A DNA stretch of 64,000 nucleotides. It comes from Oscillospiraceae bacterium. GTDB lineage: Bacteria; Bacillota; Clostridia; Oscillospirales; Oscillospiraceae. Position numbers and translations under genes: made by a program. The stretch covers positions 24,953 to 88,952 of the forward strand of contig JAFPXK010000085.1 of NCBI GenBank assembly GCA_017412585.1, given 5' to 3'. The notes beneath the pieces were generated by a model. It saw nothing but the letters and a program-made list of their open reading frames with translations. It was not told the DNA's origin and searched no databases. Shown one piece after another: positions 20,953 to 60,996 of the stretch; the first letter of the stretch is position 1; the number at the start of each line of letters is the position of its first letter.

Positions 20953-21118
20953 ATTATAGCAAAAGAGCAGCTTTGCTTCAATAGACAGCAAGAAAATTTG
21001 TTTTTACAGCAACAATCCTGTTGCCGCAGGTCCCAACGGCATATATACTTAAAATAGAATATGTGAAAATCAATGTTGCAGGGCCGCCCGGTCCGCCCCA
21101 ACAACAGGAGGAATCCCT

Positions 21119-23497
21119 ATGTTAAATGAACGTCTTACCCGTATGCGCAACAAGCTGTTTGACTCCCGCCCCAGCATTACGGCGGAGCGCCTGGTGCTGG
21201 CCACGGAGGCCTATCAGAAGTTCGCCGGCGAGGCGGTGCCCATCTTCCGCGCCAAGGTGGTGCGCTACATCGCCGAGCACATGACCACCCTCATCATGGA
21301 CGATGAGCTGATCGTGGGCACCGCCACCAACAAGTATCGCGGTGCCAACCTGCACCCGGAGTTCCAGTCCAGCACCAAGTTCTATCTGGACGAGCTGGAC
21401 GAGTTCCCCGTCCGCACCAAAGACCCCTACGATATCTCCCCGGAGGACAGGGAGCTGATCCTCAAGTATCTGCCCTATTGGGAGGGCAAGGCCATGCAGG
21501 ATATCGCCAAGCCCGCTCTGCCCACCCACACGGTGGAGTGCATGAACGATGACATCATCACCGTTGGCCTTACCAACGGCGTCTCCGGCGAGACCACCTG
21601 CGACCATGAGAAGGTGCTCACCCTGGGCCTGAAGGGCTACATGGAGGAGTGCCGGGCCAACATCGCCGCCACCATGCCCAAATGTCAGCTTGACGAGGAG
21701 AAGATCAACTTCTGGCAGGCCTGCATCATCCAGTGCGAGGGCCTTATCACCTATGCCCACCGCATGGCCGACGAGGCCCAGCGCCAGGCCGATGCCTGCG
21801 CCGACCCCAAGCGCCGTCGTGAGCTGCTGACCATCGCCGAGAACTGCCGCGTGGTGCCGGAGAATCCGCCCCAGACCTTCCAGCAGGCGCTGCAGCTGGT
21901 GTGGTTCGTCCATGTCTATTTCCACATCGAGGTCTGCACCACCGCCAACGGCTTCGGCCGCTTTGACCAGTATATGTGGCCCTACTATAAGAAGGACGTC
22001 ATCGACGACAAGCGCATCACCCAGGATGAGGCGCTGGAGATGCTGGAGTGCTTCTATCTGAAGGCCTGCGAGGTCTTTGAGGTGCGTGACCGCTGGTACG
22101 CCACCTCCTTTGCCGGCTATCCCATGTGGGAGATTCTGGTGGTAGGCGGCCAGACCCCCGATGGCAAGGACGCCACCAATGACCTGAGCTACCTGTGCCT
22201 GGAGGCCGCCAACCAGCTCAAGACCACCCAGCCCGTCATGGCCGTCCGCGTGTGGGATGGCACCCCCGAGGCGCTGATCCGCAAGGGCTGCGAGATGATC
22301 CAGGACGGCCAGGCCAACCCCGGCTTCTTCAATGACAACGTAGCCATGCAGATGGCCCTGGGCAAGGGCTGCTCCATGGAGGAGGCCCGTGACTGGACCA
22401 TCGTGGGCTGCATCCAGCCCGGCCCCGGCGGCGGCAGCACCGACGGCTCCCCCGACGCCGGCTACGTCAACATGGGCAAGATGATCGAGTTCGTGCTGCA
22501 TAACGGCGTGGACCCCGACACCGGCAAGCTGATGGGCCTCCAGACCGGCGACCCCAGAGAGTTCAAGAACGTGGAGGACCTGAAGAATGCCCTGAAAAAG
22601 CAGATTCTCCATCATTACCGCATGATCTGCGACGGCTACAACGTAATGCAGAGCATGCACATGACCCGCTACCCGGTGATTTTCGCCAGCATGGTCACCA
22701 AGGGCTGCGTGGAGAGCGGCCGCAGCGTTCAGCACGGCGGCGCCAAGTTCTCCACCGCCGGTCTCTATATCACCGGCGCGGCCAACCTGGCCGATTCCAT
22801 CGCCGCCATCGACACCTGCGTGTTCCGCGATCACGACTTCACCATGGATGAGCTCATCGCCGCCCTGGACAAGAACTTTGAGGGCGAGGAGCGCATGCGC
22901 CAGCTGCTGCTGAACAAGGCCCCCAAGTTCGGCAACGACAACGAGTACGTGGACGGCATCTACCGTGAGATGATGCATTTCATCGCCGAGAACGTGCAGG
23001 AATGGCCCGACGCCCGTGGCGGACGGTATTCCTTCAATGTCCATTCCCAGACTGTCAACGTGTCCCACGGCATGGTCTGCGGAGCCACCCCCGACGGCCG
23101 CCTGGCCGGCGAGCCCTTCTGCGACAACGCCTCGCCCATGATGGGCCGTGACGTGAAGGGCCCCACCGCCACGGTGAAGTCCGTGGCCGCCATGGGCCAG
23201 ACCGCCTTCCACGACGGCGCCCTGTTCAACCTCCGCTTCGACCCCAAGGGCGTGGAGGGCGAGAAGGGCCTGCAGAGCATCGAGGGCGTCATCAAGACCT
23301 ACTTCAAGCACGGCGGCGAGCATATCCAGATCAACGTGGTGGACAACAAGACCCTGAAGGACGCCCAGATTCACCCCGAGAAGTACCGGGGCCTCATGGT
23401 CCGCGTGGCGGGCTACATGGCCTACTTCACCGAGCTGGATAAGAGCGCCCAGGACACCATCATCTACCGCACGCCCCACTACGCCCGCCCGGAATAA
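21119..23497 (+). CDS. glycyl radical enzyme (PFL-like fold), unknown specificity
   Basis: 792 aa. C-terminal glycyl-radical motif MVRVAGYMAYF (G765). Putative thiyl loop DWTIVG-C431-I-Q433-PG. RBS AGGAGGAA. Confidence 0.9.
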   Translation: MLNERLTRMRNKLFDSRPSITAERLVLATEAYQKFAGEAVPIFRAKVVRYIAEHMTTLIMDDELIVGTATNKYRGANLHPEFQSSTKFYLDELDEFPVRTKDPYDISPEDRELILKYLPYWEGKAMQDIAKPALPTHTVECMNDDIITVGLTNGVSGETTCDHEKVLTLGLKGYMEECRANIAATMPKCQLDEEKINFWQACIIQCEGLITYAHRMADEAQRQADACADPKRRRELLTIAENCRVVPENPPQTFQQALQLVWFVHVYFHIEVCTTANGFGRFDQYMWPYYKKDVIDDKRITQDEALEMLECFYLKACEVFEVRDRWYATSFAGYPMWEILVVGGQTPDGKDATNDLSYLCLEAANQLKTTQPVMAVRVWDGTPEALIRKGCEMIQDGQANPGFFNDNVAMQMALGKGCSMEEARDWTIVGCIQPGPGGGSTDGSPDAGYVNMGKMIEFVLHNGVDPDTGKLMGLQTGDPREFKNVEDLKNALKKQILHHYRMICDGYNVMQSMHMTRYPVIFASMVTKGCVESGRSVQHGGAKFSTAGLYITGAANLADSIAAIDTCVFRDHDFTMDELIAALDKNFEGEERMRQLLLNKAPKFGNDNEYVDGIYREMMHFIAENVQEWPDARGGRYSFNVHSQTVNVSHGMVCGATPDGRLAGEPFCDNASPMMGRDVKGPTATVKSVAAMGQTAFHDGALFNLRFDPKGVEGEKGLQSIEGVIKTYFKHGGEHIQINVVDNKTLKDAQIHPEKYRGLMVRVAGYMAYFTELDKSAQDTIIYRTPHYARPE

Positions 23498-23507
23498 GGA
23501 GCGCTCC

Positions 23508-24431
23508 ATGAAAGCACTGGTCGGCAACATTCAAAAATTCTCCACGGAGGACGGCCCCGGTATACGCACCACCGTGTTCCTCAAAGGCTGCCCGCTGCGG
23601 TGCCGCTGGTGCCATAACCCGGAGCTTATCAGCTACGAGCAGCAGCTCATTCAGATGCCCAATAGCTGCATCCACTGCGGCTATTGCCTGACCCATTGCC
23701 CCCAAAACGCTATTTCGGTGGGGGAGGACGCCAAAATCCATATCGACCGGGAGAAGTGTGACAGATGCTTTGCCTGCACCGCCTTCTGCTATGCCGAGAG
23801 CCTGCGGAAGGTGGCCCGGGAGATGACCCCCCAGGAGGTTATGGCCGAGGTGGTCCAGGACAAGGATTTTTACGACAGCACCGGCGGCGGCATGACCGTC
23901 AGCGGCGGCGAGATGCTCTCCCACCCCGATTTCACTGCCGCGCTGGTAGACCTGGCGGCCCAGGAGGGCATCTGCGTCTGCCTGGACACCTCCGGCTACG
24001 GCGACGGCGACACGCTGTACCGCCTGGTAAAGCGCGAGAACGTGACTCACGTGCTGTATGACATGAAGTCCATCGACGACGCCGTGCATCAGGCCTATAC
24101 GGGGCGGAGCAACAAGGTGATTTTGGATAATCTCCGCCGTCTGGCCGCCGACCCGGTCACCCGGGAGAAGATTCAGATGCGCATGCCGCTGACCCATGAC
24201 GTCAACGATACCCCCGCCATCATCGAGGCCACGGCCGATCTATACCGTCAGCTGGGCCTCAAGCGCGTGACGCTGCTGCCCTATCACGACCTGGGCAAGG
24301 CCAAGCTGCGGAACATCGGCGGTACGCCGGAGAGCTTCACGCCGCCCTCCGATGAGCGGGTGGAGGAGATTCGCGCCTGTTTCCGCACCGCGGCGGACAT
24401 GGACGTGGAGATTTTAGGCAAGCTGGACTGA
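23508..24431 (+). CDS. glycyl-radical enzyme activating protein (radical SAM)
   Basis: C28PLRC32RWC35 (CX3CX2C) plus two ferredoxin-type motifs, CIHCGYCLTHCP and CDRCFACTAFC. Starts 10 nt after the GRE. Confidence 0.9.
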   Translation: MKALVGNIQKFSTEDGPGIRTTVFLKGCPLRCRWCHNPELISYEQQLIQMPNSCIHCGYCLTHCPQNAISVGEDAKIHIDREKCDRCFACTAFCYAESLRKVAREMTPQEVMAEVVQDKDFYDSTGGGMTVSGGEMLSHPDFTAALVDLAAQEGICVCLDTSGYGDGDTLYRLVKRENVTHVLYDMKSIDDAVHQAYTGRSNKVILDNLRRLAADPVTREKIQMRMPLTHDVNDTPAIIEATADLYRQLGLKRVTLLPYHDLGKAKLRNIGGTPESFTPPSDERVEEIRACFRTAADMDVEILGKLD

Positions 24432-24486
24432 CACCCCTGTGCCCTGCGGGGCCACATATCATCCAATAACGGAAAGGAGAACGAGT

Positions 24487-25254
24487 ATGGATTTCACAGG
24501 TAAGGTAGCCATTGTTACCGGCGCCGGCGGCGATATGGGCCGGGCCATCGTTAAGAAGTTTACCGACAACGGCGCCAAGGCGGTGCTTATGGACATCCGC
24601 GAGGAGGCGGCCCGGAGATCGGTAGCGCTCCTGGGGCTGGATGAGGAGCATGGCTTCGTGGTCACCGTGGACGTGGCCAGTGAGGACAGCGTCAAGGCCG
24701 CCGTGCAGAAGGTGATGGACAAGTACGGCCGTATCGACTGCCTGGTGAATCTGGCGGGCATCGAGGGCCCCAACAACAGCCGCACGGAGGAATACGATTT
24801 CAAAATGGCCAAGAAGGTGTTTGAGATCAACGTCTACGGCACCTTCCTGATGATGCAGAATGTGCTGCCCGTCATGCAGGCTCAGAAGAGCGGCGCCATC
24901 GTCAACTTCGGCTCCGTGTCCGGCATGTTCGGCTATGCCGGCGAGATCGCCTACGGCGCCTCCAAGGCCGCCGTCATCCACATGACTAAGAACGCCGCCA
25001 ACGAGAACGGCGGCAACGGCGTCCGCGTCAACGCCATTTCTCCCGGCTGGGTGAACACGGAGATGTTCCGCCGCATCCTGGAGCAGTATAAGGAGACCTT
25101 TGAGAACCCCCTGGATAACGTGACCCTGGGCCCCATGAACCGTCCCGGCGAGCCCATGGAAATGGCCAACGTGGTGGTGTTCCTTTGCTCCGACGAGGCG
25201 TCCTATGTCAACGGCTCCAACTTCCTGGTGGACGGCGGCATGACGCTGGGTTAA
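24487..25254 (+). CDS. SDR-family oxidoreductase
   Basis: Trimmed to ATG 24487 (RBS AAAGGAGAA). TGAGGDMG cofactor motif and YGASKAA (YxxxK). Confidence 0.85.
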   Translation: MDFTGKVAIVTGAGGDMGRAIVKKFTDNGAKAVLMDIREEAARRSVALLGLDEEHGFVVTVDVASEDSVKAAVQKVMDKYGRIDCLVNLAGIEGPNNSRTEEYDFKMAKKVFEINVYGTFLMMQNVLPVMQAQKSGAIVNFGSVSGMFGYAGEIAYGASKAAVIHMTKNAANENGGNGVRVNAISPGWVNTEMFRRILEQYKETFENPLDNVTLGPMNRPGEPMEMANVVVFLCSDEASYVNGSNFLVDGGMTLG

Positions 25255-25289
25255 TTTTGGTGTGACTTACCCTCTCACATATATTTGGT

Positions 25290-25328
25290 GCAGCCCGGCT
25301 CCGACCGTAGAGGTCGGAGCCGGGCTGC
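25290..25328 (+). terminator. strong hairpin after the SDR gene
   Basis: 17-bp stem gcagcccggctccgacc / ggtcggagccgggctgc. Confidence 0.6.
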
Positions 25329-25466
25329 GCTTGCGGAACTGTTTTCCTGTGAAATACAGCAATCCGATGTGGATTTCTCCACCACACAATCATGGATTTG
25401 ACCTGAATGCTGTGGTATTGTAAAAATGTAAAAGACGGCGAAATACCACGTTTTGGAGGGATGAAC

Positions 25467-25916
25467 ATGGCAGAAAAAATGACAGAGCAGCGCGCCAATG
25501 AAATGATGGCCGTAGGCTACCATTGCTCCCAGGTGGTTATGTGCCACGTGGCGGAGTGCCTGGGACAGGACGTGAATGCCGCCTTGCGGCTCACCGCCGG
25601 TTTGGGCGCCGGCTGCAACCATGGTGACACCTGCGGCGTGCTGTCCGCGGGCTCTCTGGCCCTGGGGCTTCTGTATGGCTACGATAAGCCCAACGCCACC
25701 GAGGAGAATGCCAGGCTGATTGCGCTGGTGCGGGAGTTCCACAGCCGCTTTGAGGCTATTCACGGCGCCACCCTTTGCCGCCAGCTCCTGAAGGGCTACG
25801 ACGCCGCCGACCCCAACCGGGTCAGCACCCCTCATACCTGGGACAACTGCGGCAAATACTGCGCCGACGCCTGCGCCATCCTGGACGACATGATCGGCGA
25901 CCGTTACGTGGCGTAG
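25467..25916 (+). CDS. C_GCAxxG_C_C family putative redox protein
   Basis: GYHCSQ..., GDTCGVLSAG core and C-terminal CGKYCADAC. ATG 25467 lies 7-8 nt after GGAGGG. Confidence 0.7.
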   Translation: MAEKMTEQRANEMMAVGYHCSQVVMCHVAECLGQDVNAALRLTAGLGAGCNHGDTCGVLSAGSLALGLLYGYDKPNATEENARLIALVREFHSRFEAIHGATLCRQLLKGYDAADPNRVSTPHTWDNCGKYCADACAILDDMIGDRYVA

Positions 25917-49299: not shown

Positions 49300-49375
49300 G
49301 CTTGTGTGGCTCAGTTGGTAGAGCAGCTCACTCGTAATGAGCAGGTCGCCGGTTCGAGTCCGGCCACAAGCTCCA
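49300..49375 (+). tRNA. tRNA-Thr (anticodon CGU), CCA encoded
   Basis: Cloverleaf folded by hand. Acceptor GCTTGTG/CACAAGC, D arm GCTC/GAGC, anticodon arm GCTCA-CTCGTAA-TGAGC, T arm GCCGG-TTCGAGT-CCGGC. Confidence 0.9.
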
Positions 49376-49522
49376 ATAGGAAAGGCCGCCCCAAAGGGGT
49401 GGCCTTTTCTATTGGAGCTTGTGGATGGACGAGAAGTTTATCCCCCCTTGTGGGGGAAGTCCGGCCACAAGCTCCATAAAAAAAGCACTGCTTACGCAGT
49501 GCTTTTTTTATGGAGCTTGTGG
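49364..49522. repeat. two long palindromes built on alternating copies of the tRNA 3'-end 12-mer CCACAAGCTCCA
   Basis: 12-mer at 49364 (+), 49413 (inverted), 49465 (+) and 49511 (inverted). The 19-nt tRNA 3' end AGTCCGGCCACAAGCTCCA recurs at 49458-49476. Terminator-like cores sit inside each palindrome. Confidence 0.85.
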
Positions 49523-49660: not shown

Positions 49661-51640
49661 ATGGTTACCATCCATGCCGAGGGGCAGGAGTGGCGTCTGA
49701 GCCTGGACGGCGAGGCCGTCATCGTCCACACGCCGCGGCAGCCCTTCGCGGTGATGATTCACCGGGAGAAGCGCTACGAGGCCCAGCGTGGCACCGTCAA
49801 GACCACCGTGGTGGAGACGGAGCGGGTGGCCCTCTCGGACTATACCGCCGACGATGCCGGCGTCACCTTCCGGGGCGGCGGTCACGCCCTCCGCGTTGAC
49901 GTTGCCGATTGCGAGGGGGGCGCGGAGCTGCGCTTCACCGGGGAGGAGGGCTGGTCGTACCAGTTCACCCTCCGGGGCTATCCCGGCGAGGCGGTGTTTG
50001 GCGGCGGCGAGCAGTACCGCCAGACCAACCTCCGGGGCGAGCAGGTGGTGAACTTCGTCTCCGAGCACATCAAGGCCACCACCATTCTGGAAAAGGCCCT
50101 GCTGCCCCGGGGCCGCTACAAGGAGAAGCCCCACAGCAGCATCGGCAGCTATTCCCCCATGCCGGTGTTTACCACCGACCGCCGCCGTCTCTTCCTCTTC
50201 GACACCGATTGGGACGGCATCTCCGACTTCCGCACCGACGATTATACCTTCATCTTCGACCGCTGCCCCCGGGGCGCCGCGCTGCTCCGTGGCGAGAGCT
50301 ACGCCGACCTTGCCGGTATGCTCGCCCGCCGCATTCCCAACCGCCAGTATATCCCCGACTGGTGCCACGACGGCATGATCCTGGGCATCCAGGGCGGCAC
50401 CCGGGCCATTCTGGACAAGACCTTTGCCATGCTGGACGCCGGGGCCAAAATCTGCGGCGTGTGGAGCCAGGACTGGTCCGGCGAGAACCGCACCGTCATG
50501 GGCAAGCAGGTGTGGTGGAACTGGGAGGTGGACGAAAAGCTCTACCCCGACTTAAAGGGCGCTATCGCCAGGCTGAACGCCCGGGGCGTCCGCTTCCTGG
50601 CCTACATCAACCCCTATCTGGTAAAGGACAGCCGCCTCTACCGCTACTGCCGCCACAAGGGCTATCTCATCACCCGCACCGACGGCACCGTTTACCACAT
50701 CAAGTCCACCACCTTCGACGCCGGTATGCTGGACCTCACCAATCCCGAGGCGGTACATTACATAAAGGAAACGCTGATCAAGCGGAATATGCTGGATTTG
50801 GGTATCTCCGGCTGGATGGCGGACTTCGGCGAGTATTTGCCTGTGGACTGCGTCCTCCACGACGGCGACCCCGCCGTGCTCCATAACCGCTGGCCGGTGC
50901 TGTGGGCCAAGGTAAACCGGGAGGCCATTGAGGAATACGGCGCCAAGGACGTGATGTTCTTCACCCGCAGCGGGTATCTGGGCATCCAGACCTACGCCCC
51001 CATCATGTGGAACGGCGACCAGCATACCGACTATACCCGTGACTACGGCATGCCCTGCGTCATGCCCGCCAGCTTCTCCCTGGGCTTTTCCGGCGCGCCT
51101 ATGGTGCACAGCGACGTAGGCGGCTTCTTCTCCTTCGGCAAGCTGAAGCGGGACGATGAGCTGATGATCCGTTGGACGGAGATGAACACCTTTTCGCTGC
51201 TGATGCGCAGCCACGAGTCCATCCGCCCCTGGGCCAACAGCCAGTTCGACGCCCCCGGCGTCAAGGCTCACACCGTGGCCCTGACCCGCATCCACGCCGC
51301 CCTGAAGCCCTATATCGCCCACTGCGCCGCCCAGGCCGGGGAGGGCCTTCCCGCCATGCGGCCCGACTTCTGGTTCGCCGGCGATTACCGGGCCTCCCAT
51401 GACCCCTATTCCTATTTCCTGGGGGATGACCTCTACGTCTGCCCGGTGATTCGCCGGGGCGAGCACCGCCGCCAGGTCCATCTGCCGGAAGGGGAGTGGG
51501 TACATTTCTGGTCCGGCACGGAATATCCCGGCGGCACCGAGCACATGATTGCCGCCCCTCTGGGCAAGATCCCCGTTTTCTACCGCAAGAGCAGTCCCTT
51601 CGCACCGCTGTTCCGCGAGGCAGCGGGAATACATAAGTAA
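49661..51640 (+). CDS. GH31 glycosidase of the YihQ-like clade
   Basis: Trimmed to ATG 49661 (RBS AAGGAGG); the track ORF runs through the tRNA. GWMADFGEYLP (nucleophile D388) and MWNGDQ (D453). Collinear with E. coli YihQ as recalled. Confidence 0.85.
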   Translation: MVTIHAEGQEWRLSLDGEAVIVHTPRQPFAVMIHREKRYEAQRGTVKTTVVETERVALSDYTADDAGVTFRGGGHALRVDVADCEGGAELRFTGEEGWSYQFTLRGYPGEAVFGGGEQYRQTNLRGEQVVNFVSEHIKATTILEKALLPRGRYKEKPHSSIGSYSPMPVFTTDRRRLFLFDTDWDGISDFRTDDYTFIFDRCPRGAALLRGESYADLAGMLARRIPNRQYIPDWCHDGMILGIQGGTRAILDKTFAMLDAGAKICGVWSQDWSGENRTVMGKQVWWNWEVDEKLYPDLKGAIARLNARGVRFLAYINPYLVKDSRLYRYCRHKGYLITRTDGTVYHIKSTTFDAGMLDLTNPEAVHYIKETLIKRNMLDLGISGWMADFGEYLPVDCVLHDGDPAVLHNRWPVLWAKVNREAIEEYGAKDVMFFTRSGYLGIQTYAPIMWNGDQHTDYTRDYGMPCVMPASFSLGFSGAPMVHSDVGGFFSFGKLKRDDELMIRWTEMNTFSLLMRSHESIRPWANSQFDAPGVKAHTVALTRIHAALKPYIAHCAAQAGEGLPAMRPDFWFAGDYRASHDPYSYFLGDDLYVCPVIRRGEHRRQVHLPEGEWVHFWSGTEYPGGTEHMIAAPLGKIPVFYRKSSPFAPLFREAAGIHK

Positions 51641-51653
51641 GAGAGGTATCGAG

Positions 51654-53072
51654 ATGGAGAATTCCTACATTTCCCGCACCAGCGGCATCAAGGCCAGAGA
51701 TAAAATCGGCTACGCCATGGGCGACTTGGCCTCCTGCCTTGTGTTCGGCCTGACTCAGAGCGTGCTGAACAAGTACTATACCGACGTGCTGGAGCTGAGC
51801 GTCCTCAGCGTCATGGTCATGACCATCATCGCCCGCATCTGGGACGCCATCAACGATCCCCTGTGGGGCCGCATCATCGACGGCGCCCGGGTCCGTCCCG
51901 ACGGCCGCTACCGCCACTGGCTGAAGGTGTTCGCCGTGCCGGTGGCCCTGTCTGCCATCTTGATGTTCGTCAAGATTCCCGGCCTCAGCGGCAGCGGCTA
52001 CCTGGCCTACGCCTACGTGACCTATATCCTCTTTGGTATGCTCTATACCTGCATCAATATCCCCTACGGCTCCATGGCCCAGGTCATCACCTCCGACGAT
52101 AAGGAGCGTTCGTCCCTGTCGGTGTTCCGCTCCATCGGCTCCACCTTCGGCGCCATGCCCGCCATGGTGCTGGCCTCCGTGTGCTACGTTACCCTGGCCG
52201 ACGGCACCAAGCGGATGGATGACCGCCGGGTCCTCATCGGCGTGTGCGCCATTGCCGTGCTCAGCGTGGCCGCCTATTTCCTCAGCTACGCCTGGAGCCG
52301 TGAGCGTGTGGCTTCCCGGCCCACTCCCCGGCAGAAAGGCCAGACCATGCAGGTGGTTCGCACGCTGCTCAAGAGCCGCCCCTTCATGGCGGTGAGCCTG
52401 GCCAGTATGCTGTTCCTGGCGGCCCAGATGTTCGGCCAGGGCTACAACAGCTACCTGTTCCACCACTACTTCAACGCCCCCGGTCTCACCATGCTGCCCA
52501 CCGTGTTCCAGTACCTGCCGGTGGCGGTCATCATGTTCTTCGCCACCCGTCTGGGCAACAGGTTCGGCCGCCGGGAGGTCTGCTCCTACGGCGTGCTGCT
52601 GGCCGCCGTGTTCTACCTGGTGCTGTTTGTGCTGGCCCTGTTCGGCTTCACCAACGTGTGGCTGTACCTGCTGGCCTGCCTCATGAGCGGCATCGGCACC
52701 GCCTTCATCTTCCTGCTGGTGTGGGTGCTGGCCACCGACGCCATCGACTACAATAAGGTCACCTACGGCCTCAACGACGAGGCCACCAGCTACGCCTTTT
52801 ACAGCTTCATGCGCAAGCTGGGCCAGACCGTGGCCACCATCCTCATCAACGTGCCCCTGCTGCGCATCGGTTACAGCGGCAGCGAGCTGAAAACCGAGGG
52901 CCTCAGCGCCGCCGCCCTCAAGACCATGTACAACTTCTCCGTCATGATCCCCGCGGTGCTGTTCCTGCTGGTGTTCATCATCCTCCGCTTCGTCTATCCC
53001 CTCAGCAAGGCCCGTGTGGCCCAGCTCCAGGTGGAAAAGGAGAAGATGATGGAATCCCAGAGCGGCCAATAA
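51654..53072 (+). CDS. GPH-family (glycoside-pentoside-hexuronide) cation symporter
   Basis: Trimmed to ATG 51654. KIGYAMGDLASCLVF and RIWDAINDPLWGRIID motifs. 12 TM. Confidence 0.85.
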   Translation: MENSYISRTSGIKARDKIGYAMGDLASCLVFGLTQSVLNKYYTDVLELSVLSVMVMTIIARIWDAINDPLWGRIIDGARVRPDGRYRHWLKVFAVPVALSAILMFVKIPGLSGSGYLAYAYVTYILFGMLYTCINIPYGSMAQVITSDDKERSSLSVFRSIGSTFGAMPAMVLASVCYVTLADGTKRMDDRRVLIGVCAIAVLSVAAYFLSYAWSRERVASRPTPRQKGQTMQVVRTLLKSRPFMAVSLASMLFLAAQMFGQGYNSYLFHHYFNAPGLTMLPTVFQYLPVAVIMFFATRLGNRFGRREVCSYGVLLAAVFYLVLFVLALFGFTNVWLYLLACLMSGIGTAFIFLLVWVLATDAIDYNKVTYGLNDEATSYAFYSFMRKLGQTVATILINVPLLRIGYSGSELKTEGLSAAALKTMYNFSVMIPAVLFLLVFIILRFVYPLSKARVAQLQVEKEKMMESQSGQ

Positions 53073-53105
53073 TCGCCTTTGAAAAAGTAACCCATTTGAA
53101 AAAAG

Positions 53106-53131
53106 GAGCCGCGGCCCTCGGGCCGCGGCTC
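53106..53131. terminator. bidirectional hairpin terminator
   Basis: 12-bp GC stem gagccgcggccc / gggccgcggctc between convergent genes. Confidence 0.65.
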
Positions 53132-53152
53132 TTTCCTGCATTAAACTATGAA

Positions 53153-54493
53153 TCAATACCGATACACGGCAAAGCCAAACAGCTCCGCCAGCATTTCCAG
53201 CGCCCTGCCGTACCGGCCCTGGATCACCACGTAATGGGGCTCAAAGCCCGCCTTGACGCTGCGCTCCACAATGTCCCGGCTGTTGCCGTCGGTCCGCACC
53301 ACAATGGACGTGCCGGTGAACTGCTTGGGCTTGTCCAGGGCCTCACCCTCCAGGATGAAGAAGCGGAAGGAGCCGTCGGCCTCCCGGCCGATGCGGAACA
53401 CGGTGGCCTCCGGGAAGGCCTGGCAGCCGAAGTCCATAGCCGGGCCGATTTTCCGGTTGGGATGTACGCCCACGGTGGCGCCGGTATCCCGCCGGGCCAT
53501 GGAGCAGGCGGCCGCGCCGCAGTGCCAGAAGGTGATGGTGTTCTCCCCCTCGTCCAGAGAGACGGGGTCGCCGAAGAACACCGGCTTGCCCGACAGCGCC
53601 ATGCCCACCCACATGGACAGGGCCCCGTAGATGTCCGCCTCGCAGGCCGCTGCCACGCCCTCGTCGTTCAGGAGGGACAGCACCGTGCACACCGGCGTGC
53701 CAAAGGCGGTGAAGAAGTCGGGCCAGCACCGGGAGGCCAGGGCCTTAATGCCTTTTTCCTGCACATAGTCGGTGTAGGCCTTATAGAGCCGTGCGTGGTC
53801 CAGGGCGTTTTTCTCCGGGGTGGCCTCCAGGCCGCAGGTGGCCTTTCTTGTGCGCTCCAGCCATTCCCGGCACGCCTCGTCGCTGTACCCCTTGGCCCGG
53901 TCGATGAGCTCCCTTGCCTCTATGGCCTCCAGCTCCACGCCGAAGGTGTGCATCAGCTCGCTGTCCAGCGCCCGGCCGAAGCCGAAGCCCTGGGGCGTGT
54001 GGCCCACCGCCGCCATTTTCAGGGAGGTCATCTCTTTTTTGACCCGGGCCGCCGCCACGAAGGCGGCAATGTCCCGGCTCACGTTTTCCTCCTGCGGCCC
54101 ACCGAACACGTAGCCGAAGGGCCTGTTGCCGAAGGCGCGGAGGGTGTTGGCGGCGGAGTAGGCCCCGGTGAGGGAGTTGAGCCGCAGCCGCCCGCCGTCG
54201 ATGACAGGCTCCCGCAGCGTCCACAGCAGGATGGGGCAGTCAAAGCGCCGCAGCACCTCCGACATATAGGCGGCATTGGCAAAGATGAGATTCTGAAACA
54301 CGATCATGTCCGGGTGCAGAGGGGCGAGGAAATCGTGGAGGGCGTCCACCCCCAGCAGCATCTCCTCCGGGCACACGAAGTCGCCGCAGATGCCCTTCAG
54401 CAGGGCCCGGCTGCGGTCAAACTGGGCCTGGGCGCTCTCCATGTGAAAGGTGGGCACGCCCACGCCCACGTATACAGGTACGAAGTCGCTCAT
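53153..54493 (-). CDS. L-fucose/L-arabinose isomerase-family sugar isomerase
   Basis: 446 aa. FucI/AraA-like core with AACEADIYGA metal-site motif. RBS GGAGG. Confidence 0.7.
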   Translation of the reverse strand: MSDFVPVYVGVGVPTFHMESAQAQFDRSRALLKGICGDFVCPEEMLLGVDALHDFLAPLHPDMIVFQNLIFANAAYMSEVLRRFDCPILLWTLREPVIDGGRLRLNSLTGAYSAANTLRAFGNRPFGYVFGGPQEENVSRDIAAFVAAARVKKEMTSLKMAAVGHTPQGFGFGRALDSELMHTFGVELEAIEARELIDRAKGYSDEACREWLERTRKATCGLEATPEKNALDHARLYKAYTDYVQEKGIKALASRCWPDFFTAFGTPVCTVLSLLNDEGVAAACEADIYGALSMWVGMALSGKPVFFGDPVSLDEGENTITFWHCGAAACSMARRDTGATVGVHPNRKIGPAMDFGCQAFPEATVFRIGREADGSFRFFILEGEALDKPKQFTGTSIVVRTDGNSRDIVERSVKAGFEPHYVVIQGRYGRALEMLAELFGFAVYRY

Positions 54494-54579
54494 AGAGACC
54501 TCCTATTCCAATATGTGTCCTCATCATATCGCCCCGAGGCACATTTTGTCAACACATAGATGATACATCGCAATTAAGG

Positions 54580-54608
54580 TTGACAAAGACCGCGCCAGCG
54601 CCTAAACT
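54580..54608 (+). promoter_or_regulatory. putative sigma-A promoter of the transketolase operon
   Basis: TTGACA-17 nt-TAAACT. The TTG used as the ORF start in the track is the -35 hexamer. Confidence 0.45.
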
Positions 54609-54648
54609 CATGGTAGCCAATACTCTGTCAAAATGGAGGCGATTACCG

Positions 54649-55476
54649 TTGCAAGAGGATCTGAAGGCCCTGTGCCGCGACCTGCGCTGCGATATCATGA
54701 CCGCCATCGGTCATCTGGGCGTGGGCCACGCCGGCGGCAGCCTGTCCATCGTGGAACTGCTGGCGGTGCTGTATTTCAAGGAAATGCACATCGACCCCGC
54801 CCAGCCCGATATGCCGGGCCGTGACCGCTTTATCTGCTCCAAGGGCCACGCCGGCCCTGCGGTGTACGCGGCGCTGGCCCGCCGGGGCTACTTCCCCCGT
54901 GACCTGCTCATGACCCTGAACCAGGGCGGCACCAGCCTGCCCAGCCACTGCGATATGCTCCGCACCCCCGGCGTCGACATGACCACCGGCAGCCTGGGCC
55001 AGGGCTTTTCCTGCGCCGTAGGCGTGGCCCTGGGCTCCCGCCTGGCGGGGGACGGCGCCACCGTCTATACCGTCATCGGCGACGGTGAGAGCCAGGAGGG
55101 CCAGATCTGGGAGGCCGCCATGCTGGCAGGCAACAAGCACCTTGACAACCTGATTGCCTTTACAGACTACAATAAGCTCCAGATCGACGACCCTGTGGCC
55201 GTTATCAACGATCTTGCCCCCCTGGGCGCCAAATGGCGGGCCTTCGGCTGGCACGTCATTGAGGTGGAGGACGGCAACGATGTGGACCAGGTGGCCCAGG
55301 CGGTGGCCCTTGCCAAACGCAACCGGGGCTCCGGCAAGCCCACCATGGTCATCCTCCACACGGTGAAGGGCAGCGGCGTCAGCTTCATCATAGAGCGGGG
55401 CTGCGGCAACCACAACACCAAGGTGACGGAAGAGGAAGCCCGCCGTGCCGTGGCGGAGATCAGAGGGGAGGCGTAA
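54649..55476 (+). CDS. transketolase, N-terminal (TPP-binding) subunit
   Basis: TTG 54649 lies 9 nt after GGAGG; ATG 54610 is the alternative start. GHAGGSLSIVELL, GDGESQEGQIWEA. Confidence 0.85.
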   Translation: MQEDLKALCRDLRCDIMTAIGHLGVGHAGGSLSIVELLAVLYFKEMHIDPAQPDMPGRDRFICSKGHAGPAVYAALARRGYFPRDLLMTLNQGGTSLPSHCDMLRTPGVDMTTGSLGQGFSCAVGVALGSRLAGDGATVYTVIGDGESQEGQIWEAAMLAGNKHLDNLIAFTDYNKLQIDDPVAVINDLAPLGAKWRAFGWHVIEVEDGNDVDQVAQAVALAKRNRGSGKPTMVILHTVKGSGVSFIIERGCGNHNTKVTEEEARRAVAEIRGEA

Positions 55477-55479
55477 GGG

Positions 55480-56403
55480 ATGGAAATGCGCGCTGTCTAC
55501 GCCCAGTGCCTGGGCGAGCTGATGGAAAAGGACGAGAAAATCTGCCTCCTGGACGCCGACCTCTCCAAGGCCAGCGGCACACGGGGTCTCTATGACCGCT
55601 TCCCCGACAGAACGTTCAACTGCGGCATCGCCGAGCAGAACATGGCCTCCGTGGCCGCCGGCCTTGCCAGCTACGGCTTCAAGCCCTGGATCGAGAGCTT
55701 TGCCCCCTTTGCCACCCGCCGCATCTGCGATCAGATCACCCTGTCCATCGCCTACGCCGGGCGGAACGTGAAAATCGTTGGCACCGACCCCGGCATCACC
55801 GCCGAGCTCAACGGCGGCACCCACATGAGCTTTGAGGACATCTCCGTGCTTCGGGCCATTCCCGGCATGGTGATTTTCGAGCCGGTGGACGAGGTGCAGC
55901 TCCGCTCCGCCATGCCGGTGCTCAGCGAGTACCAGGGCTGCCTCTACCTGCGCCTGGCCCGCAAGGAGATGCCCCGGGTCTTTGATGATGATTACCATTT
56001 CGACCTGTTCCGGGCCGACACCCTCCGTGAGGGCGCCGACGTCACCGTCTTCACCTCCGGCTATCCCACCGCCGACGTGGTGGCCGTGGCGGAGGAGTTG
56101 TCCCGGGAGGGCCTTTCCTGCCAGGTGGTGAACGTACACACCATCAAGCCCATCGACAGGGAAACCGTGGTGGCCGCCGCCCGGAAAACCGGCGTGGTCG
56201 TCACGGTGGAGAATCACAATATCATCGGCGGCCTCCACTCCGCCGTACTGGAGGCCCTGGCCCACGAGCGCATCCCCGTCTACGCCGTGGGCGTCGAGGA
56301 CCGCTTCGGCGAGGTGGGCAAGCTGCCCTATCTCCGCCAGGCCATGGGCCTTACCCCCGAACACATCAAGGCGGTCATCAAAGAGGCCGCCGACGCCAAA
56401 TAA
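55480..56403 (+). CDS. transketolase, C-terminal (pyrimidine-binding) subunit
   Basis: FNCGIAEQNMASVAAGLA. 307 aa. Starts 3 nt after the N-terminal subunit. Confidence 0.9.
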   Translation: MEMRAVYAQCLGELMEKDEKICLLDADLSKASGTRGLYDRFPDRTFNCGIAEQNMASVAAGLASYGFKPWIESFAPFATRRICDQITLSIAYAGRNVKIVGTDPGITAELNGGTHMSFEDISVLRAIPGMVIFEPVDEVQLRSAMPVLSEYQGCLYLRLARKEMPRVFDDDYHFDLFRADTLREGADVTVFTSGYPTADVVAVAEELSREGLSCQVVNVHTIKPIDRETVVAAARKTGVVVTVENHNIIGGLHSAVLEALAHERIPVYAVGVEDRFGEVGKLPYLRQAMGLTPEHIKAVIKEAADAK

Positions 56404-56418
56404 CAGGAGGAGTTTACT

Positions 56419-56895
56419 ATGAAAATTGCCATCGGAAGCGATAAGTCCGGCTTTGCCGCCAAGGAGGCCGTCAAGGCCTATCTCACCGAGGCCGGCGTTC
56501 CCTTTGACGACCTGGGCACCGCCGACCTGGACCACGTCAATCCCTATTACGCCGTGGCCGATAAGGTGGCCCCCCTGGTGCAAAGCGGCGCCTACGACCG
56601 GGCCGTGCTGATCTGCGGCACCGGCGCGGGCATGTGCGTGGTGTCCAATAAGTACAAGGGCGTCTACGCCGTGGCCTGCGAGAGCGTCTATTCCGCCAAA
56701 ATGGCCCGGGCCATCAATAACGCCTCCGTCCTCTGCATGGGCGGCTGGATCGTGGGCCCCGAAATGGCGGTGGAGATGGTGAAAACCTTCCTGGCCACCG
56801 ACTGGTGCCAGGATCTGGAGGACTGGCGCCGGGAGAACATGAAAAAGTTCGCCGTCCAGGTCAGCGCCATTGAGGATAAGATCTATGATCGCTGA
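56419..56895 (+). CDS. RpiB/LacA/LacB-family sugar(-phosphate) isomerase
   Basis: MKIAIGSDKSGF, LICGTGAGMCV (catalytic Cys region). 158 aa. Confidence 0.85.
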   Translation: MKIAIGSDKSGFAAKEAVKAYLTEAGVPFDDLGTADLDHVNPYYAVADKVAPLVQSGAYDRAVLICGTGAGMCVVSNKYKGVYAVACESVYSAKMARAINNASVLCMGGWIVGPEMAVEMVKTFLATDWCQDLEDWRRENMKKFAVQVSAIEDKIYDR

Positions 56896-57982
56896 TTTTC
56901 TGTACCGCCAGCCGGTGGAGATTCACTTCGGCAGGGGCAAATTTGATGCATTACCCAATCTTTTGGCGGAAAAAGGCATCCGCCGGGCCCTCATTGTCTG
57001 CGGCAGCCACTTCGCCCCCAAGGCGGAGGCACTGGCGGCAGCGGGGCAGGGGATCTGCGGCGTGTATAGCCACGTCCAGGCCGACCCCCAGCTTTCGGAC
57101 GTGAAGGCCGCGGCAGAGCAGGCCCGCCGTCTGGCGGCCGACGCCATCATCGGCGTGGGCGGCGGCAGCGCCATGGACAGCGCCAAGTTTGCCGCCGCCA
57201 TCGTGGACGATTTCGACAGCGCCGACGCCTATTTTGAGGGTAAGCGTCCCTTCCCGGCCCGCCGTCTGCCGGTCATCGCCGTGCCCACCACCGCCGGCAC
57301 CGGCAGTGAGGTCACCCAGGTTTCCGTCATCAGCAGGGGGGAGGAGAAGCGCACCATCAACGACCCCGCCTTTATGCCCGCCCTGGCCCTGGTGGACCCC
57401 GCCCTGGGGGACACGGTGCCGCCCCACGTGGTGATGTGTACCGGCCTGGACGCCCTGGCCCACGCCCTGGAGGGCTATTGGAGCCGCAACCACCAGCCCA
57501 TTTCCGACCTGATGGCCGTAGAGGCCGTTCGCCGTATCTGGGCCAATCTGGAACGGGCCTGGCGTGACCGCGGCGATACGGAGGCTTGCGATGAGATGGC
57601 CTTTGCCGCGCTGCTGGGGGGCCTGTCCTTCGCCCTGCCCAAGACGGCGGGCTGCCACGCCTGCAGTTATCCCCTCTGCGAGCATTTCCACATCAGCCAC
57701 GGCGAGGCCTGCGCCTTTACCCTGGACAGCTTCGTCCTCGCCAATGCCGATGACCGCCTTGCCTGCCTCTGCCGCGCCGCCGGTGTCGGTACAGTGGAGG
57801 ATTTGGCACGCCGCATCCGGGAGTGGAAGGCTATGGCGGGCCTTCGCACCCGCCTCCGTGACCTGGGGGACACCTCGCCCCGCCAGCTTGCCCGGGAGGC
57901 AGCGGCCCACCCGCTGATGGGCAATAACCCTGTGCCCATGGACGAGGACGCCCTTTGCGCCATGTTCACCGCGCTGCAATAA
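56885..57982 (+). CDS. iron-containing (group III) alcohol dehydrogenase
   Basis: ATG 56885 overlaps the rpiB-like stop. GGGSAMDSAKF, PTTAGTGSEV, and His ligands in LDALAHALE and HACSYPL...HISHGEA. Confidence 0.85.
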   Translation: MIADFLYRQPVEIHFGRGKFDALPNLLAEKGIRRALIVCGSHFAPKAEALAAAGQGICGVYSHVQADPQLSDVKAAAEQARRLAADAIIGVGGGSAMDSAKFAAAIVDDFDSADAYFEGKRPFPARRLPVIAVPTTAGTGSEVTQVSVISRGEEKRTINDPAFMPALALVDPALGDTVPPHVVMCTGLDALAHALEGYWSRNHQPISDLMAVEAVRRIWANLERAWRDRGDTEACDEMAFAALLGGLSFALPKTAGCHACSYPLCEHFHISHGEACAFTLDSFVLANADDRLACLCRAAGVGTVEDLARRIREWKAMAGLRTRLRDLGDTSPRQLAREAAAHPLMGNNPVPMDEDALCAMFTALQ

Positions 57983-58177: not shown

Positions 58178-58459
58178 ATGAGCGTGGTCATTGTCGGCGG
58201 CAACGAGTGTATGGAGCGGCAGTACAAGGACCTGTGCCGCCAGTTTGACTGCCGCGCCAAGGTGTACACCAAGGCCGAGGGTATGGCGGGCAAGGTGGGC
58301 AATCCCGACCTGCTGGTGCTGTTCACCGGCACCATGTCCCACAAGATGCTGCAAGGCGCCCTCAGCGGCGTGAAGGGGAAGGACACCGTCATCGCCCGCT
58401 CCCATTCCAGCTCCATGTCCGCCCTGCGCACCATTCTTATGACCCACGCCGTCCGTTGA
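58178..58459 (+). CDS. DUF2325-like small protein
   Basis: Trimmed to ATG 58178 (RBS AGGAGG). MSVVIVGGNECMERQYKDLC...LVLFTGTMSHKM pattern. Confidence 0.65.
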   Translation: MSVVIVGGNECMERQYKDLCRQFDCRAKVYTKAEGMAGKVGNPDLLVLFTGTMSHKMLQGALSGVKGKDTVIARSHSSSMSALRTILMTHAVR

Positions 58460-58656
58460 TTTCGCCATTCTCATTCTTTTCCATAGCGGGGCGCAGCGCC
58501 TGTGTTGCGTCCCGCCCTCCTTTTGCCTATCGCTGCCCGTGCCGCGCCGCTGCGCCGCCGGGCGGCTTTTTTTGCGAAAAAAGTAAAATCCCCATACCAT
58601 TTTTCTGCGGTATATACTATAATGAGAATCAGAATGATAACGAGGGAGGACTTGCC

Positions 58657-60996
58657 ATGATCACCGTTGAGAATCGCCTCTTTATTCTGGAGACCGAGCG
58701 CACCGCCTACTGCTTCCGTGCCCGGGAGGACGGCGTACTGGAGCACCTCTACTACGGCGCCCGTCTGGGCCGGAGGGAGGACTATGAGGCCCTGGCCCCG
58801 GTCTACCGCCATCAGCCCGGCAACGCCGTGGTGCTGGAAAGCGGCGCCGCCCTGGAGCGGATGGACCAGGAGGTGGGCACTGCCGGCTGGGGCGACAGCC
58901 GGGAGTGCGCCGTAGACGTCATTTTCCCCGACGGCGACAGCAGCGCCTCCTTCCGCTACTTCCACACCATGCGCCCGGAGCTGGACACCCCCGCTGGCCT
59001 GCCCGCCGCGGCAGGGGAGGGGGAGACGCTGCAGGTGGTGTGTAAGGACCAGCGCCACGAGGTGTATCTCAATCTCTACTATACCGTTTTCCCCGAGACG
59101 GACGCCATCGTCCGCTGGGCCCGCCTCAGCAACGATACCGACGGCGCCGTCACCATCCGCCGCCTTATGAGCCAGCAGATCGACCTTCCCCGGGGGGACT
59201 ATCTCCTCCACACCTTCCGGGGCGCCTGGGCCCGGGAGATGGATCATGTCACCGCTCCCATTTCCGGCCGCCAGACCTGGGGCGCCAGGGTGGGGGTCAG
59301 CTCCAGCCGGTGCAACCCCTTCGCCATGGTGTCCGCCGCCGACGCCACCGAGCGCTTCGGCGCCGTGTGGGGCCTCAACCTTTTGTACAGCGGCAATCAT
59401 ATTGGCGTGGTGGAGCGGGGGCCCTACGGCGGCGTCCGCGTCATCCAGGGCATGGACGGCCTTACCTGGCATCTTGCTGCCGGCGAGAGCTTCGACACGC
59501 CCCAGGCTGTCAGCGTGTTCTCCGTCTCCGGCTTCGGCGGCATGAGCGTGCAGATGCACCGCTTCGTCCGCCGCCACATCGTTCGCGGCGAGTGGCAGTA
59601 CCGGGAGCGCCCCGTGCTGGTGAACAGCTGGGAGGCCATGTATTTCAAAGTAGACCGCCGCAAGCTGCTGGCCCTGGGCAAGGAGGCCAAGGCCCTGGGC
59701 GCGGAGCTGCTGGTGCTGGATGACGGCTGGTTCCGGGGCCGCAAGGACGACACCGCCGCCCTGGGCGACTGGCAGGAGGACACGGGCAAGCTGCCCGGCG
59801 GCCTGGGCGGCCTGTGCAAGGACGTACAGGCCCTGGGCCTGGACTTCGGCCTGTGGATGGAGCCGGAGATGGTCAGCGAGAAGAGCGACCTGTTCCGCGA
59901 CCATCCCGACTGGATTCTGGGCCACGCCGACCAGGCTCTGGGCCGCAACCAGTATGTGCTGGATCTGAGCCGGGCCGATGTGTGCGACTATGTGTACCAG
60001 GCCGTGGCCGATGTGCTGTCCTCCGCCGACATCAGCTATATCAAGTGGGACATGAACCGCATCTTCTCCGATACCTGGTCCTCCACCGCCGCTCCGGAGC
60101 GCCAGGGCGAGGTGTGCCACCGCTACGTTCTGGGCCTTTACAGCATCCTCCGCCGCTTAAACGCCGCCTTCCCCCACGTGCTGTTCGAGGCCTGCGCCAG
60201 CGGCGGCAACCGCACCGACCTGGGCATGCTCTGCTTTATGCCCCAGGTCTGGGCCAGCGACAATACCGACGTCCTGTGCCGCGTGGGCATTCAGAACGGC
60301 TACAGCTACGGCTACCCCCAGTCCGTCCTGGGCTGCCACGTCTCCGCCTCCCCCAACCACCAGACCCTGCGCCGCTCTCCGCTGGACAGCCGCCTCCAGG
60401 TGGCCTGCTTCGGCCTGCTGGGCTTCGAGCTGGATTTGGGCGACCTGCCCAAGGGCCAGCGTGAGTCCTTAAAGCAGCAGGTGGCGTTCTATAAGGCCCA
60501 CCGCCGCACGTTGCAATTCGGCCAGCTCTATCGTGGCAATGTCAGCGATAACGAGACCGTCTGGACCGCCGCCGCCACCGATGGCAGCGAGGCCCTCACC
60601 CTCCATTTCTGCGCCCTTAACGGCCCCAACGAGCCGATGCGCCGGGTCCGCTGCGGCGGCCTCACCCCCGACGCCCTTTACCGCGTCACCAATCTGCCCG
60701 TCACCCCCCATCTCCACGACTTCGGCTCCCTGGTAAACATGATGTCCCCCGTGCCCATCAAGCCCGACTCCCTCACCGCCCAACTGGCCGAGCACTTTGT
60801 CAAGCTGGAGCCGGACAGCATCGACCTCACCGCCTCCGGCCTGGGTCTGATGCGCCAGGGCTTCGTCCCCGTGCAGCACTTCTCCGGCACCGGCTACGAC
60901 GGCGGCACCGCCGTCATGCGCGACTTCGACAGCCGCCTCTATCTGCTGGAGCGGCAGGAGGAGCCCCAAGCCGCCCCCGCTGCGGAAGAAAAGTAA
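58657..60996 (+). CDS. GH36 alpha-galactosidase
   Basis: Trimmed to ATG 58657 (RBS GAGGGAGG). YIKWDMNR (nucleophile region), CASGGNR, WASDNTD (acid/base region). Confidence 0.9.
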   Translation: MITVENRLFILETERTAYCFRAREDGVLEHLYYGARLGRREDYEALAPVYRHQPGNAVVLESGAALERMDQEVGTAGWGDSRECAVDVIFPDGDSSASFRYFHTMRPELDTPAGLPAAAGEGETLQVVCKDQRHEVYLNLYYTVFPETDAIVRWARLSNDTDGAVTIRRLMSQQIDLPRGDYLLHTFRGAWAREMDHVTAPISGRQTWGARVGVSSSRCNPFAMVSAADATERFGAVWGLNLLYSGNHIGVVERGPYGGVRVIQGMDGLTWHLAAGESFDTPQAVSVFSVSGFGGMSVQMHRFVRRHIVRGEWQYRERPVLVNSWEAMYFKVDRRKLLALGKEAKALGAELLVLDDGWFRGRKDDTAALGDWQEDTGKLPGGLGGLCKDVQALGLDFGLWMEPEMVSEKSDLFRDHPDWILGHADQALGRNQYVLDLSRADVCDYVYQAVADVLSSADISYIKWDMNRIFSDTWSSTAAPERQGEVCHRYVLGLYSILRRLNAAFPHVLFEACASGGNRTDLGMLCFMPQVWASDNTDVLCRVGIQNGYSYGYPQSVLGCHVSASPNHQTLRRSPLDSRLQVACFGLLGFELDLGDLPKGQRESLKQQVAFYKAHRRTLQFGQLYRGNVSDNETVWTAAATDGSEALTLHFCALNGPNEPMRRVRCGGLTPDALYRVTNLPVTPHLHDFGSLVNMMSPVPIKPDSLTAQLAEHFVKLEPDSIDLTASGLGLMRQGFVPVQHFSGTGYDGGTAVMRDFDSRLYLLERQEEPQAAPAAEEK

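Follow-up and report, generated by a model that had tools for sequence, protein, structure and literature searches.

About 10 billion tonnes of sulfoquinovose (SQ) are produced each year, and the breakdown of this sugar begins with its release from sulfolipid. The sulfoquinovosidases (SQases) that release it are recognized in genomes, in hidden Markov models (HMMs) and in polymerase chain reaction (PCR) assays by an Arg-Trp-Tyr signature. Four SQases from subfamily 13 of glycoside hydrolase family 31 (GH31) have solved structures: YihQ from Escherichia coli (5AED/5OHT), the Agrobacterium tumefaciens enzyme (5OHS/5OHY), SftG from Eubacterium rectale (6PNR) and BmSQase from Bacillus megaterium (8R56). 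A published description of the signature gives a Q/E-RWY motif with the same E. coli numbering that we use here (PMC12780224). Among the routes by which SQ is then broken down is the sulfo-transketolase (sulfo-TK) pathway, whose enzyme set (an SQ isomerase, the split transketolase SqwGH, the isomerase SqwI and the dehydrogenase SqwF) has been described in Clostridium sp. MSTE9, Faecalicatena and rumen bacteria (PMC11659671, PMC13219744).

We analyzed a stretch of 64,000 nucleotides from an Oscillospiraceae genome (contig JAFPXK010000085.1), referred to below as the window. The gene at 49661-51640 (plus strand, 659 amino acids, P0001) codes for a GH31 glycosidase of the YihQ lineage in which the Arg and Tyr of the signature are replaced by Gln and Phe. 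We denote this variant Q-W-F, and use R-W-Y and Q-W-Y in the same way. We consider it probable that the enzyme functions as an SQase whose sulfonate pocket has been remodelled and carries no charge, and that it provides the entry step for a minimal sulfo-TK locus. The residues, fold, phylogenetic placement, gene content and conservation described below are the observations from which we infer the substrate.

A YihQ-lineage GH31 glycosidase lacking two signature residues

The start codon at 49661 is sound because an aaaggagg ribosome-binding site lies just upstream of the ATG, and because the 5' part of the longer open reading frame (ORF, from 49337) is occupied by a tRNA-Thr(CGT) gene at 49300-49375. 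The reading frame is intact, and its GC content at third codon positions (GC3) is 0.87, similar to that of adjacent genes. No signal peptide was apparent at the N-terminus on inspection by eye, without a prediction program. Pfam assigned the GH31 barrel (PF01055) and the C-terminal domain (PF21365). The protein scored 596 bits against the YihQ-type NCBIfam model NF007746 (cut-off 553 bits) and 193 bits against the YicI alpha-xylosidase model (cut-off 606 bits). In phmmer searches it matched the four solved SQases over its full length with E-values of 1e-119 to 1e-124, and its identity to E. coli YihQ was 35.5% (full length). We built an AlphaFold2 model from a 48-sequence alignment and obtained a mean predicted local distance difference test (pLDDT) score of 95 and a predicted template modelling (pTM) score of 0.93. 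Foldseek placed the four SQases at the top of its ranking for this model (8R56, 6PNR, 5OHT and 5OHS; template modelling (TM) scores 0.92-0.94, root mean square deviation 2.4-2.7 Å), and the next GH31 was YicI with a TM score of 0.71. Pfam, AlphaFold2 and Foldseek all gave the GH31 architecture of an N-terminal beta-sandwich, a (beta/alpha)8 barrel and C-terminal beta domains. The NCBIfam scores and an unrooted FastTree phylogeny, which is not the CAZy scheme, placed the protein in the YihQ lineage and not on the alpha-glucosidase/alpha-xylosidase side. The window enzyme is a YihQ-lineage member by fold, profile score and tree. It is also the sole GH31 that we found in its genome, which is 96.7% complete.

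An earlier note on this DNA, made from the letters alone, had described an intact catalytic Asp pair and the loss of the signature Arg and Tyr, and had proposed alignment to the E. coli and Agrobacterium SQases. We made this alignment, which has no gaps at either signature motif. The putative nucleophile D388 (E. coli D405; codon 50822-50824) lies in GWMADFGE, which starts at residue 384, and the putative acid/base D453 (E. coli D472; codon 51017-51019) lies in MWNGDQ, which starts at residue 449; both are retained and align without gaps. In GKQVWW (from residue 281), Q283 (codon 50507-50509) occupies the position of E. coli R301 and A. tumefaciens R283. It aligns under the Arg of GKRVMW in E. 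coli (5AED), GKRLMW in 8R56, GKRLQW in E. rectale (6PNR) and GARLFW in A. tumefaciens (5OHY). W286 (codon 50516-50518) corresponds to E. coli W304, so the signature Trp is kept. In HSDVGGF (from residue 483), F489 (codon 51125-51127, TTC) aligns under the Tyr of HSDIGGY in the four solved SQases, which is Y508 in E. coli. The positions that accept Gln/Glu and Gln/Lys are both Gln in the window protein, where Q270 and Q244 correspond to E. coli Q288 and Q262. Every residue number in the earlier note proved exact. The E. coli numbering that it had used was also right: MG1655 yihQ reads SFGKRVMWNW at 297-306 and HHSDIGGYTT at 501-510, which gives R301, W304 and Y508.

The window enzyme therefore shares with the solved SQases its fold, domain order, GWMADFGE and W-x-GDQ motifs and the equivalents of Gln262, Gln288 and Trp304, at 32-36% identity, and it appears to share their cytoplasmic, operon-linked role beside SQ catabolic genes. 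It differs from them in the change of Arg301 to Gln, the change of Tyr508 to Phe, the replacement of the Gly368 loop by Ser-Thr-Thr and its placement by sequence in a separate, well-supported clade. Judged on its residues, an enzyme that lacks two of the three signature positions falls outside the set of proven, characterized SQases.

The Q-W-F signature is fixed in a rumen clade

We examined how widely the substitutions occur among relatives. Phe occupies position 489 in all 120 of the closest 90%-identity clusters (68-94% identical). Gln occupies position 283 within the pattern G-K-Q-V-x-W-N-W in 115 of these clusters (113 with GKQVWWNW and two with GKQVYWNW), the others simply falling outside the motif search pattern. 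The recurrence of the substitutions across these clusters shows that they are not sequencing noise. A scan of one genome per species yielded 80 loci, and those with 60-97% identity to the window GH31 came nearly all from ruminant gut metagenome-assembled genomes (MAGs) labelled Oscillospiraceae, Ruminococcaceae, Clostridiales or Ca. Limivicinus. We conclude that Q-W-F is a clade trait fixed in a populous rumen Oscillospiraceae group.

The earlier note had also suggested a phylogeny within GH31. Our FastTree phylogeny of 221 sequences contained 93 Q-W-Y, 47 Q-W-F and 39 R-W-Y rows, a sample that is skewed toward relatives of the query, so that these counts do not represent family-wide frequencies. 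The window GH31 lies in a 36-row Q-W-F clade with a local support of 100%, nested among YihQ-like rows. E. coli YihQ lies in a 13-row clade made up of 12 R-W-Y rows and one R-W-F row. Every Q-W-F row in the tree carries Gln at the Arg site.

A second tier of proteins carries Gln and keeps the Tyr. These Q-W-Y enzymes are 37-47% identical to the window GH31 and come from Faecalibacterium, Roseburia, Butyrivibrio and rumen MAGs. Their loci are of the sulfo-transaldolase (sulfo-TAL) type: of 45 examined, 34 contain an Fsa-type transaldolase, 38 a dehydrogenase resembling sulfolactaldehyde (SLA) reductase and 37 an SftI homologue, and NCBIfam models recovered the classic sulfo-TAL layout at one of them (L053). 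Gln at the Arg position is thus the rule in a large Firmicutes branch of sulfo-TAL clusters, a point in favor of SQase function in the window enzyme. The Q-W-F enzymes resemble the Q-W-Y enzymes in the Gln at the Arg site, the Thr at the Gly368 site and their GPH symporter and SftI partners. They differ in that the Q-W-Y enzymes keep Tyr and have genes for a transaldolase and an SLA reductase as partners in place of transketolase genes. Faecalibacterium and Roseburia clusters have been counted, by means of a YihQ HMM, as SQ degraders of the sulfofructose transaldolase (SFT) pathway (Hanson et al. 2021, PMC8397734), and the loci from these two genera that we compared are Q-W-Y. The Gln or Phe variant was not mentioned in the sulfoglycolysis literature that we examined.

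Probable remodelling of the sulfonate pocket

We compared alignment columns between Q-W-F and R-W-Y rows. Only columns 283, 347, 350 and 489 strongly separated the two groups, and the remaining -1 subsite consensus is common to both. Position 350 of the window protein (codon 50708-50710) corresponds to Gly368 of E. coli YihQ. Most R-W-Y rows have Gly here (89%), and Thr predominates in the Q-W-F (93%) and Q-W-Y (86%) rows. In the alignment, the change from Arg to Gln co-varies with a change from Gly to Thr in one loop. The window clade is almost invariant around this position (H-I-K-S-T-T-F-D-A-G-M). It also carries F490 and F492, both fixed, in place of the usual Thr and aliphatic residues that follow the Tyr.

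The column comparison found no conserved new Lys or Arg in the Q-W-F rows, so the pocket seems to have exchanged a salt bridge for neutral hydrogen-bond donors. The pocket would be lined by Gln283, Trp286, Phe489 and probably the Ser-Thr-Thr loop at 349-351, which replaces the Gly-containing loop. Such donors would then hold the C6 sulfonate in place of the salt bridge to Arg and the contact with Tyr, both of which are lost. A contact between the Thr loop and the sulfonate is suggested by covariation only.

There is precedent for a GH31 SQase without the RWY motif. SqgH, a marine enzyme from outside subfamily 13, lacks the motif as the window protein does (PMC12780224). It differs in belonging to another GH31 clade and in having predicted sulfonate ligands that still include Arg and Lys (R302, T377, K412 and F513). 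The RWY motif is not the only solution for an SQase.

The GH31 gene heads a minimal sulfo-transketolase locus

A tRNA-Thr(CGT) gene predicted by ARAGORN (49300-49375, plus strand) lies directly upstream of the locus. The GH31 gene is followed on the same strand by a GPH-family (MFS_2) sugar:cation symporter at 51655-53072 (PF13347, 8e-72; TIGR00792, 269 bits) that is 25-27% identical to E. coli YihO and YihP. It would import a sulfoquinovosyl glycoside or SQ, a direction of transport that we likewise infer. The next gene, at 53153-54493 on the minus strand, codes for a 446-residue homologue of the SftI sulfoquinovose isomerase (NF048012, 2.4e-115), for which no relative was found in the PDB.

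The remaining genes of the pathway lie on the plus strand. The SqwG-like N-terminal subunit of a transketolase, which binds thiamine diphosphate, is encoded at 54580-55476 (PF00456, 1e-47). It is 46% identical to, and hence distinct from, the housekeeping split transketolase of the same genome. The SqwH-like subunit at 55480-56403 carries the pyrimidine-binding and C-terminal domains (PF02779 and PF02780). An RpiB/LacAB-family isomerase resembling SqwI follows at 56419-56895 (PF02502, 4e-41, with NCBIfam agreeing) and by analogy would be a 4-deoxy-4-sulfoerythrose isomerase. The last gene, at 56870-57982, codes for an SqwF-like iron-containing alcohol dehydrogenase (PF00465 and PF25137). It matches the SarD sulfoacetaldehyde reductase model NF050025 weakly (153 bits), and it may by analogy be a sulfoacetaldehyde reductase.

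One locus thus holds an SQ isomerase homologue, a split transketolase, SqwI and SqwF. This set is like those of Clostridium sp. MSTE9 (Liu et al. 2021; likened here by description), Faecalicatena and the rumen Ca. Limivicinus/Caproiciproducens (PMC11659671, PMC13219744). Compared with fuller sulfo-TK clusters, such as that of genome G619 described below, the window locus has a GPH symporter instead of an ATP-binding cassette (ABC) importer and is without an EamA-type exporter, a ROK regulator and DUF4867. In three gut studies, RNA libraries yielded contigs that span the entire locus at 95-99% identity, which fits expression in vivo without amounting to proof of transcription or induction.

Linkage is conserved and one genome carries two paralogues

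We searched related loci with the proteins of the window cluster by tblastn. Among 28 Q-W-F loci, the symporter is adjacent to the GH31 gene in 23, the isomerase is present in 18 and both transketolase subunits are present in 16; the loci without a nearby transketolase are mostly on short contigs. Six of 400 sampled genomes of the window's family carry a Q-W-F GH31. An SqwG orthologue was present in all five Q-W-F genomes checked, at 68-96% identity (compared with about 46% for the housekeeping split transketolase), and four of these genomes have the two genes on one contig, about 10 kb or less apart. The Q-W-F enzyme is the sole YihQ-like protein found in the window genome and in four of the five other carriers in the family.

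The remaining carrier, G619, has two YihQ-like genes. Its Q-W-F gene and a symporter are alone on one contig (L119). Its second gene, on L120, is of the R-W-Y type (GKRLQWDW ... CDAGGY) and is 35% identical to the window GH31. The L120 cluster comprises genes for DUF6062, SftI, SqwG, SqwH, SqwI, SqwF, an EamA transporter, a ROK regulator, DUF4867, DUF624, the R-W-Y GH31, an ABC binding protein with two permeases, and YdjC. Its core enzymes are 68% (SftI), 68% (SqwG), 65% (SqwH), 78% (SqwI) and 53% (SqwF) identical to those of the window. Since the same core is wired to an R-W-Y SQase in G619, we take the core to be the SQ pathway, and it is unlikely that the window pathway as a whole has moved to a non-sulfonated sugar. 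In a small tree of transketolase N-terminal subunits, a Treponema copy located beside an R-W-Y GH31 grouped weakly with the SqwG clade (support 84, long branches).

In some genomes the GH31/symporter pair occurs on its own. At L034:9932-13421 it lies among housekeeping genes (an AICARFT/IMPCHase-domain gene, an Iso_dh-family dehydrogenase and an ABC transporter), with no transketolase within 10 kb. We conclude that the Q-W-F GH31 and its symporter form a separable module. The coexistence of R-W-Y and Q-W-F enzymes in G619 hints at a functional difference between them.

Proposed function and alternatives

We favor the reading that the Q-W-F enzyme is a working SQase. A sulfoquinovosyl glycoside, for example sulfoquinovosyl glycerol from forage thylakoid lipid, would enter through the adjacent GPH symporter and be cleaved in the cytoplasm by retaining double displacement, with D388 as the nucleophile and D453 as the acid/base. 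The freed SQ would be isomerized by the SftI homologue. SqwGH would then take off two C2 units, the RpiB-like SqwI would isomerize the intermediate and SqwF would reduce sulfoacetaldehyde to isethionate.

Several points weigh against this assignment. The four solved and tested SQases all carry Arg and Tyr, and we know of no Q-type GH31 that has been assayed. In work by Speciale et al. from 2016, E. coli YihQ mutants at R301 or Y508 reportedly lose most of their activity. The SftI homologue scores 386 bits against NF048012, whose equivalog cut-off is 700 bits. Within 49661-57982 there is neither an EamA nor a TauE gene that could supply an isethionate exporter of the SqwE type. TauE-family genes occur elsewhere in the window genome, and they are non-discriminating because 13 of 14 control genomes contain TauE. 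The retention of both copies in G619 argues against simple redundancy. Finally, a rumen study found that Ca. Limivicinus yihQ variants were enriched with SQ (PMC13219744). We considered these variants as support for the Q-W-F clade and rejected them on length and primer design, both of which point to the Tyr-bearing type. The enriched amplicons are 97 amino acids long compared with the 94 expected from the window clade, and the published reverse primer YIHQ1526Rb, which targets DIGGY-T, has mismatches at 5 of 17 positions at 51113-51129 in the window. The enrichment thus probably involved Tyr-bearing copies and does not speak for the Q-W-F clade, which surveys made with this primer probably under-sample.

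A tentative alternative is that the Q-W-F GH31 and the GPH symporter form a mobile pair of genes that gives sulfoglycolysis a separate point of entry, and that the neutral pocket confers a different substrate range. If so, the two enzymes of G619 would divide the labour, and the substrate of the Q-W-F enzyme might be another sulfoquinovosyl conjugate or a 6-modified sugar. A related explanation, the main rival to our reading although rather unlikely, is that the enzyme is a sub-functionalised paralogue that, with its symporter, offers a second entry to the same sulfo-TK pathway for another glycoside. Candidate substrates would be glycosides with another aglycone, acylated or lyso forms, or a related 6-modified or sulfonated sugar. 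This would account for the arrangement in G619, where the R-W-Y gene sits in a full cluster with an ABC importer and the Q-W-F/GPH pair is separate. It would also suit a pair that moves as a unit, as the adjacency counts and L034 suggest, and the fixed run of F489 with F490 and F492 suggests selection for a particular pocket. Against it, the Q-W-F enzyme must supply the transketolase pathway by itself in the genomes where it is the sole YihQ-like protein, and few pocket columns differ from those of the R-W-Y enzymes.

The earlier note had concluded that the enzyme is not an SQase, and that it is probably an alpha-glycosidase for a neutral glucoside, possibly a 6-deoxy or otherwise 6-modified one. 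We disfavor both conclusions and consider a neutral, 6-deoxy or non-sulfonated substrate improbable. Such a substrate would imply a non-sulfo analogue of the transketolase pathway that ends in acetaldehyde and ethanol. The alcohol dehydrogenase, transketolase and isomerases could in principle process 6-deoxy sugars, the pocket has lost its only charged sulfonate ligand and the Tyr, and the SftI homologue does fall under its equivalog cut-off. However, the neighborhood, on which the earlier note did not draw, puts the gene first in a locus that contains every core sulfo-TK enzyme, with linkage kept in relatives, and the orthologues of that core in G619 are linked to a canonical R-W-Y GH31 and DUF4867. 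The isomerase is 55-65% identical to isomerases of sulfo-TAL clusters. The clade is almost wholly from ruminant gut MAGs, and the feed there is sulfolipid-rich forage; we know of no abundant natural source of alpha-quinovosides in the ruminant gut. We found no evidence pointing toward a neutral 6-deoxy substrate. It is very improbable that the protein is a decayed or non-catalytic relic carried with the operon, as the loss of two of three signature residues might suggest, given that both catalytic Asp residues and 22 invariant columns are retained, that the Gln and Phe are themselves fixed across a clade spanning 60-97% identity, and that the intact frame has a GC3 like that of its neighbours.

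The activity of the Gln-bearing enzymes matters for how SQ degraders are counted. If they work on SQ, the textbook account of sulfonate recognition in GH31_13 covers R-W-Y enzymes only (39 of the 221 tree rows here). A survey that relies on the RWY motif would then miss the Q-type enzymes, which on the tentative reading of a separate entry module would be the main forms in gut and rumen, and DIGGY-primed assays would undercount the Q-W-F clade. A charge-free sulfonate pocket would also be open to structural study. If the Gln forms are inactive on SQ, a large class of gut and rumen 'sulfoglycolysis' operons is misannotated at its first step.

Accessory character of the locus and neighboring features

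The sulfo-TK locus appears to be accessory because the SqwG orthologue is patchy in the genus (2 of 24 sampled genomes) and because a tRNA gene with a duplicated 3' end lies at the start of the locus. The last 17 nucleotides of the tRNA-Thr gene (49359-49375) are repeated at 49460-49476, and a near-copy in inverted orientation lies at 49413-49429. The sequence between the repeat copies contains two long hairpins with T-runs, and the locus begins about 130 bp beyond. The repeat may be an integration scar that bounds the locus. We also observed an SqwG homologue from the same genus (L108, G321:C32:4133-5020; 71% identical) that contains two in-frame TAA stops and may be a decaying copy of the pathway.

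A plus-strand ORF at 53096-54559 (487 amino acids) was rejected as non-coding and regarded as an artefact of lying antisense to the GC-rich SftI gene. It has a GC3 of 0.625, compared with 0.886 for SftI, and no family match. PF01408, a possible marker of the alternative SQase SqgA (GH188), was not found in the window genome.

Downstream of the locus, a GH36 alpha-galactosidase is encoded at 58456-60996 (plus strand; PF02065, 2e-134). It is co-located only in L020, a 97%-identical relative, and probably falls outside the conserved unit. As a speculation, a GH36 enzyme and an SQase could together degrade the head groups of thylakoid glycolipids. IslA and HpsG, which cleave sulfonates, are glycyl-radical enzymes, and the window contains a glycyl-radical enzyme operon at 19066-25916, about 25 kb upstream of the GH31 gene.

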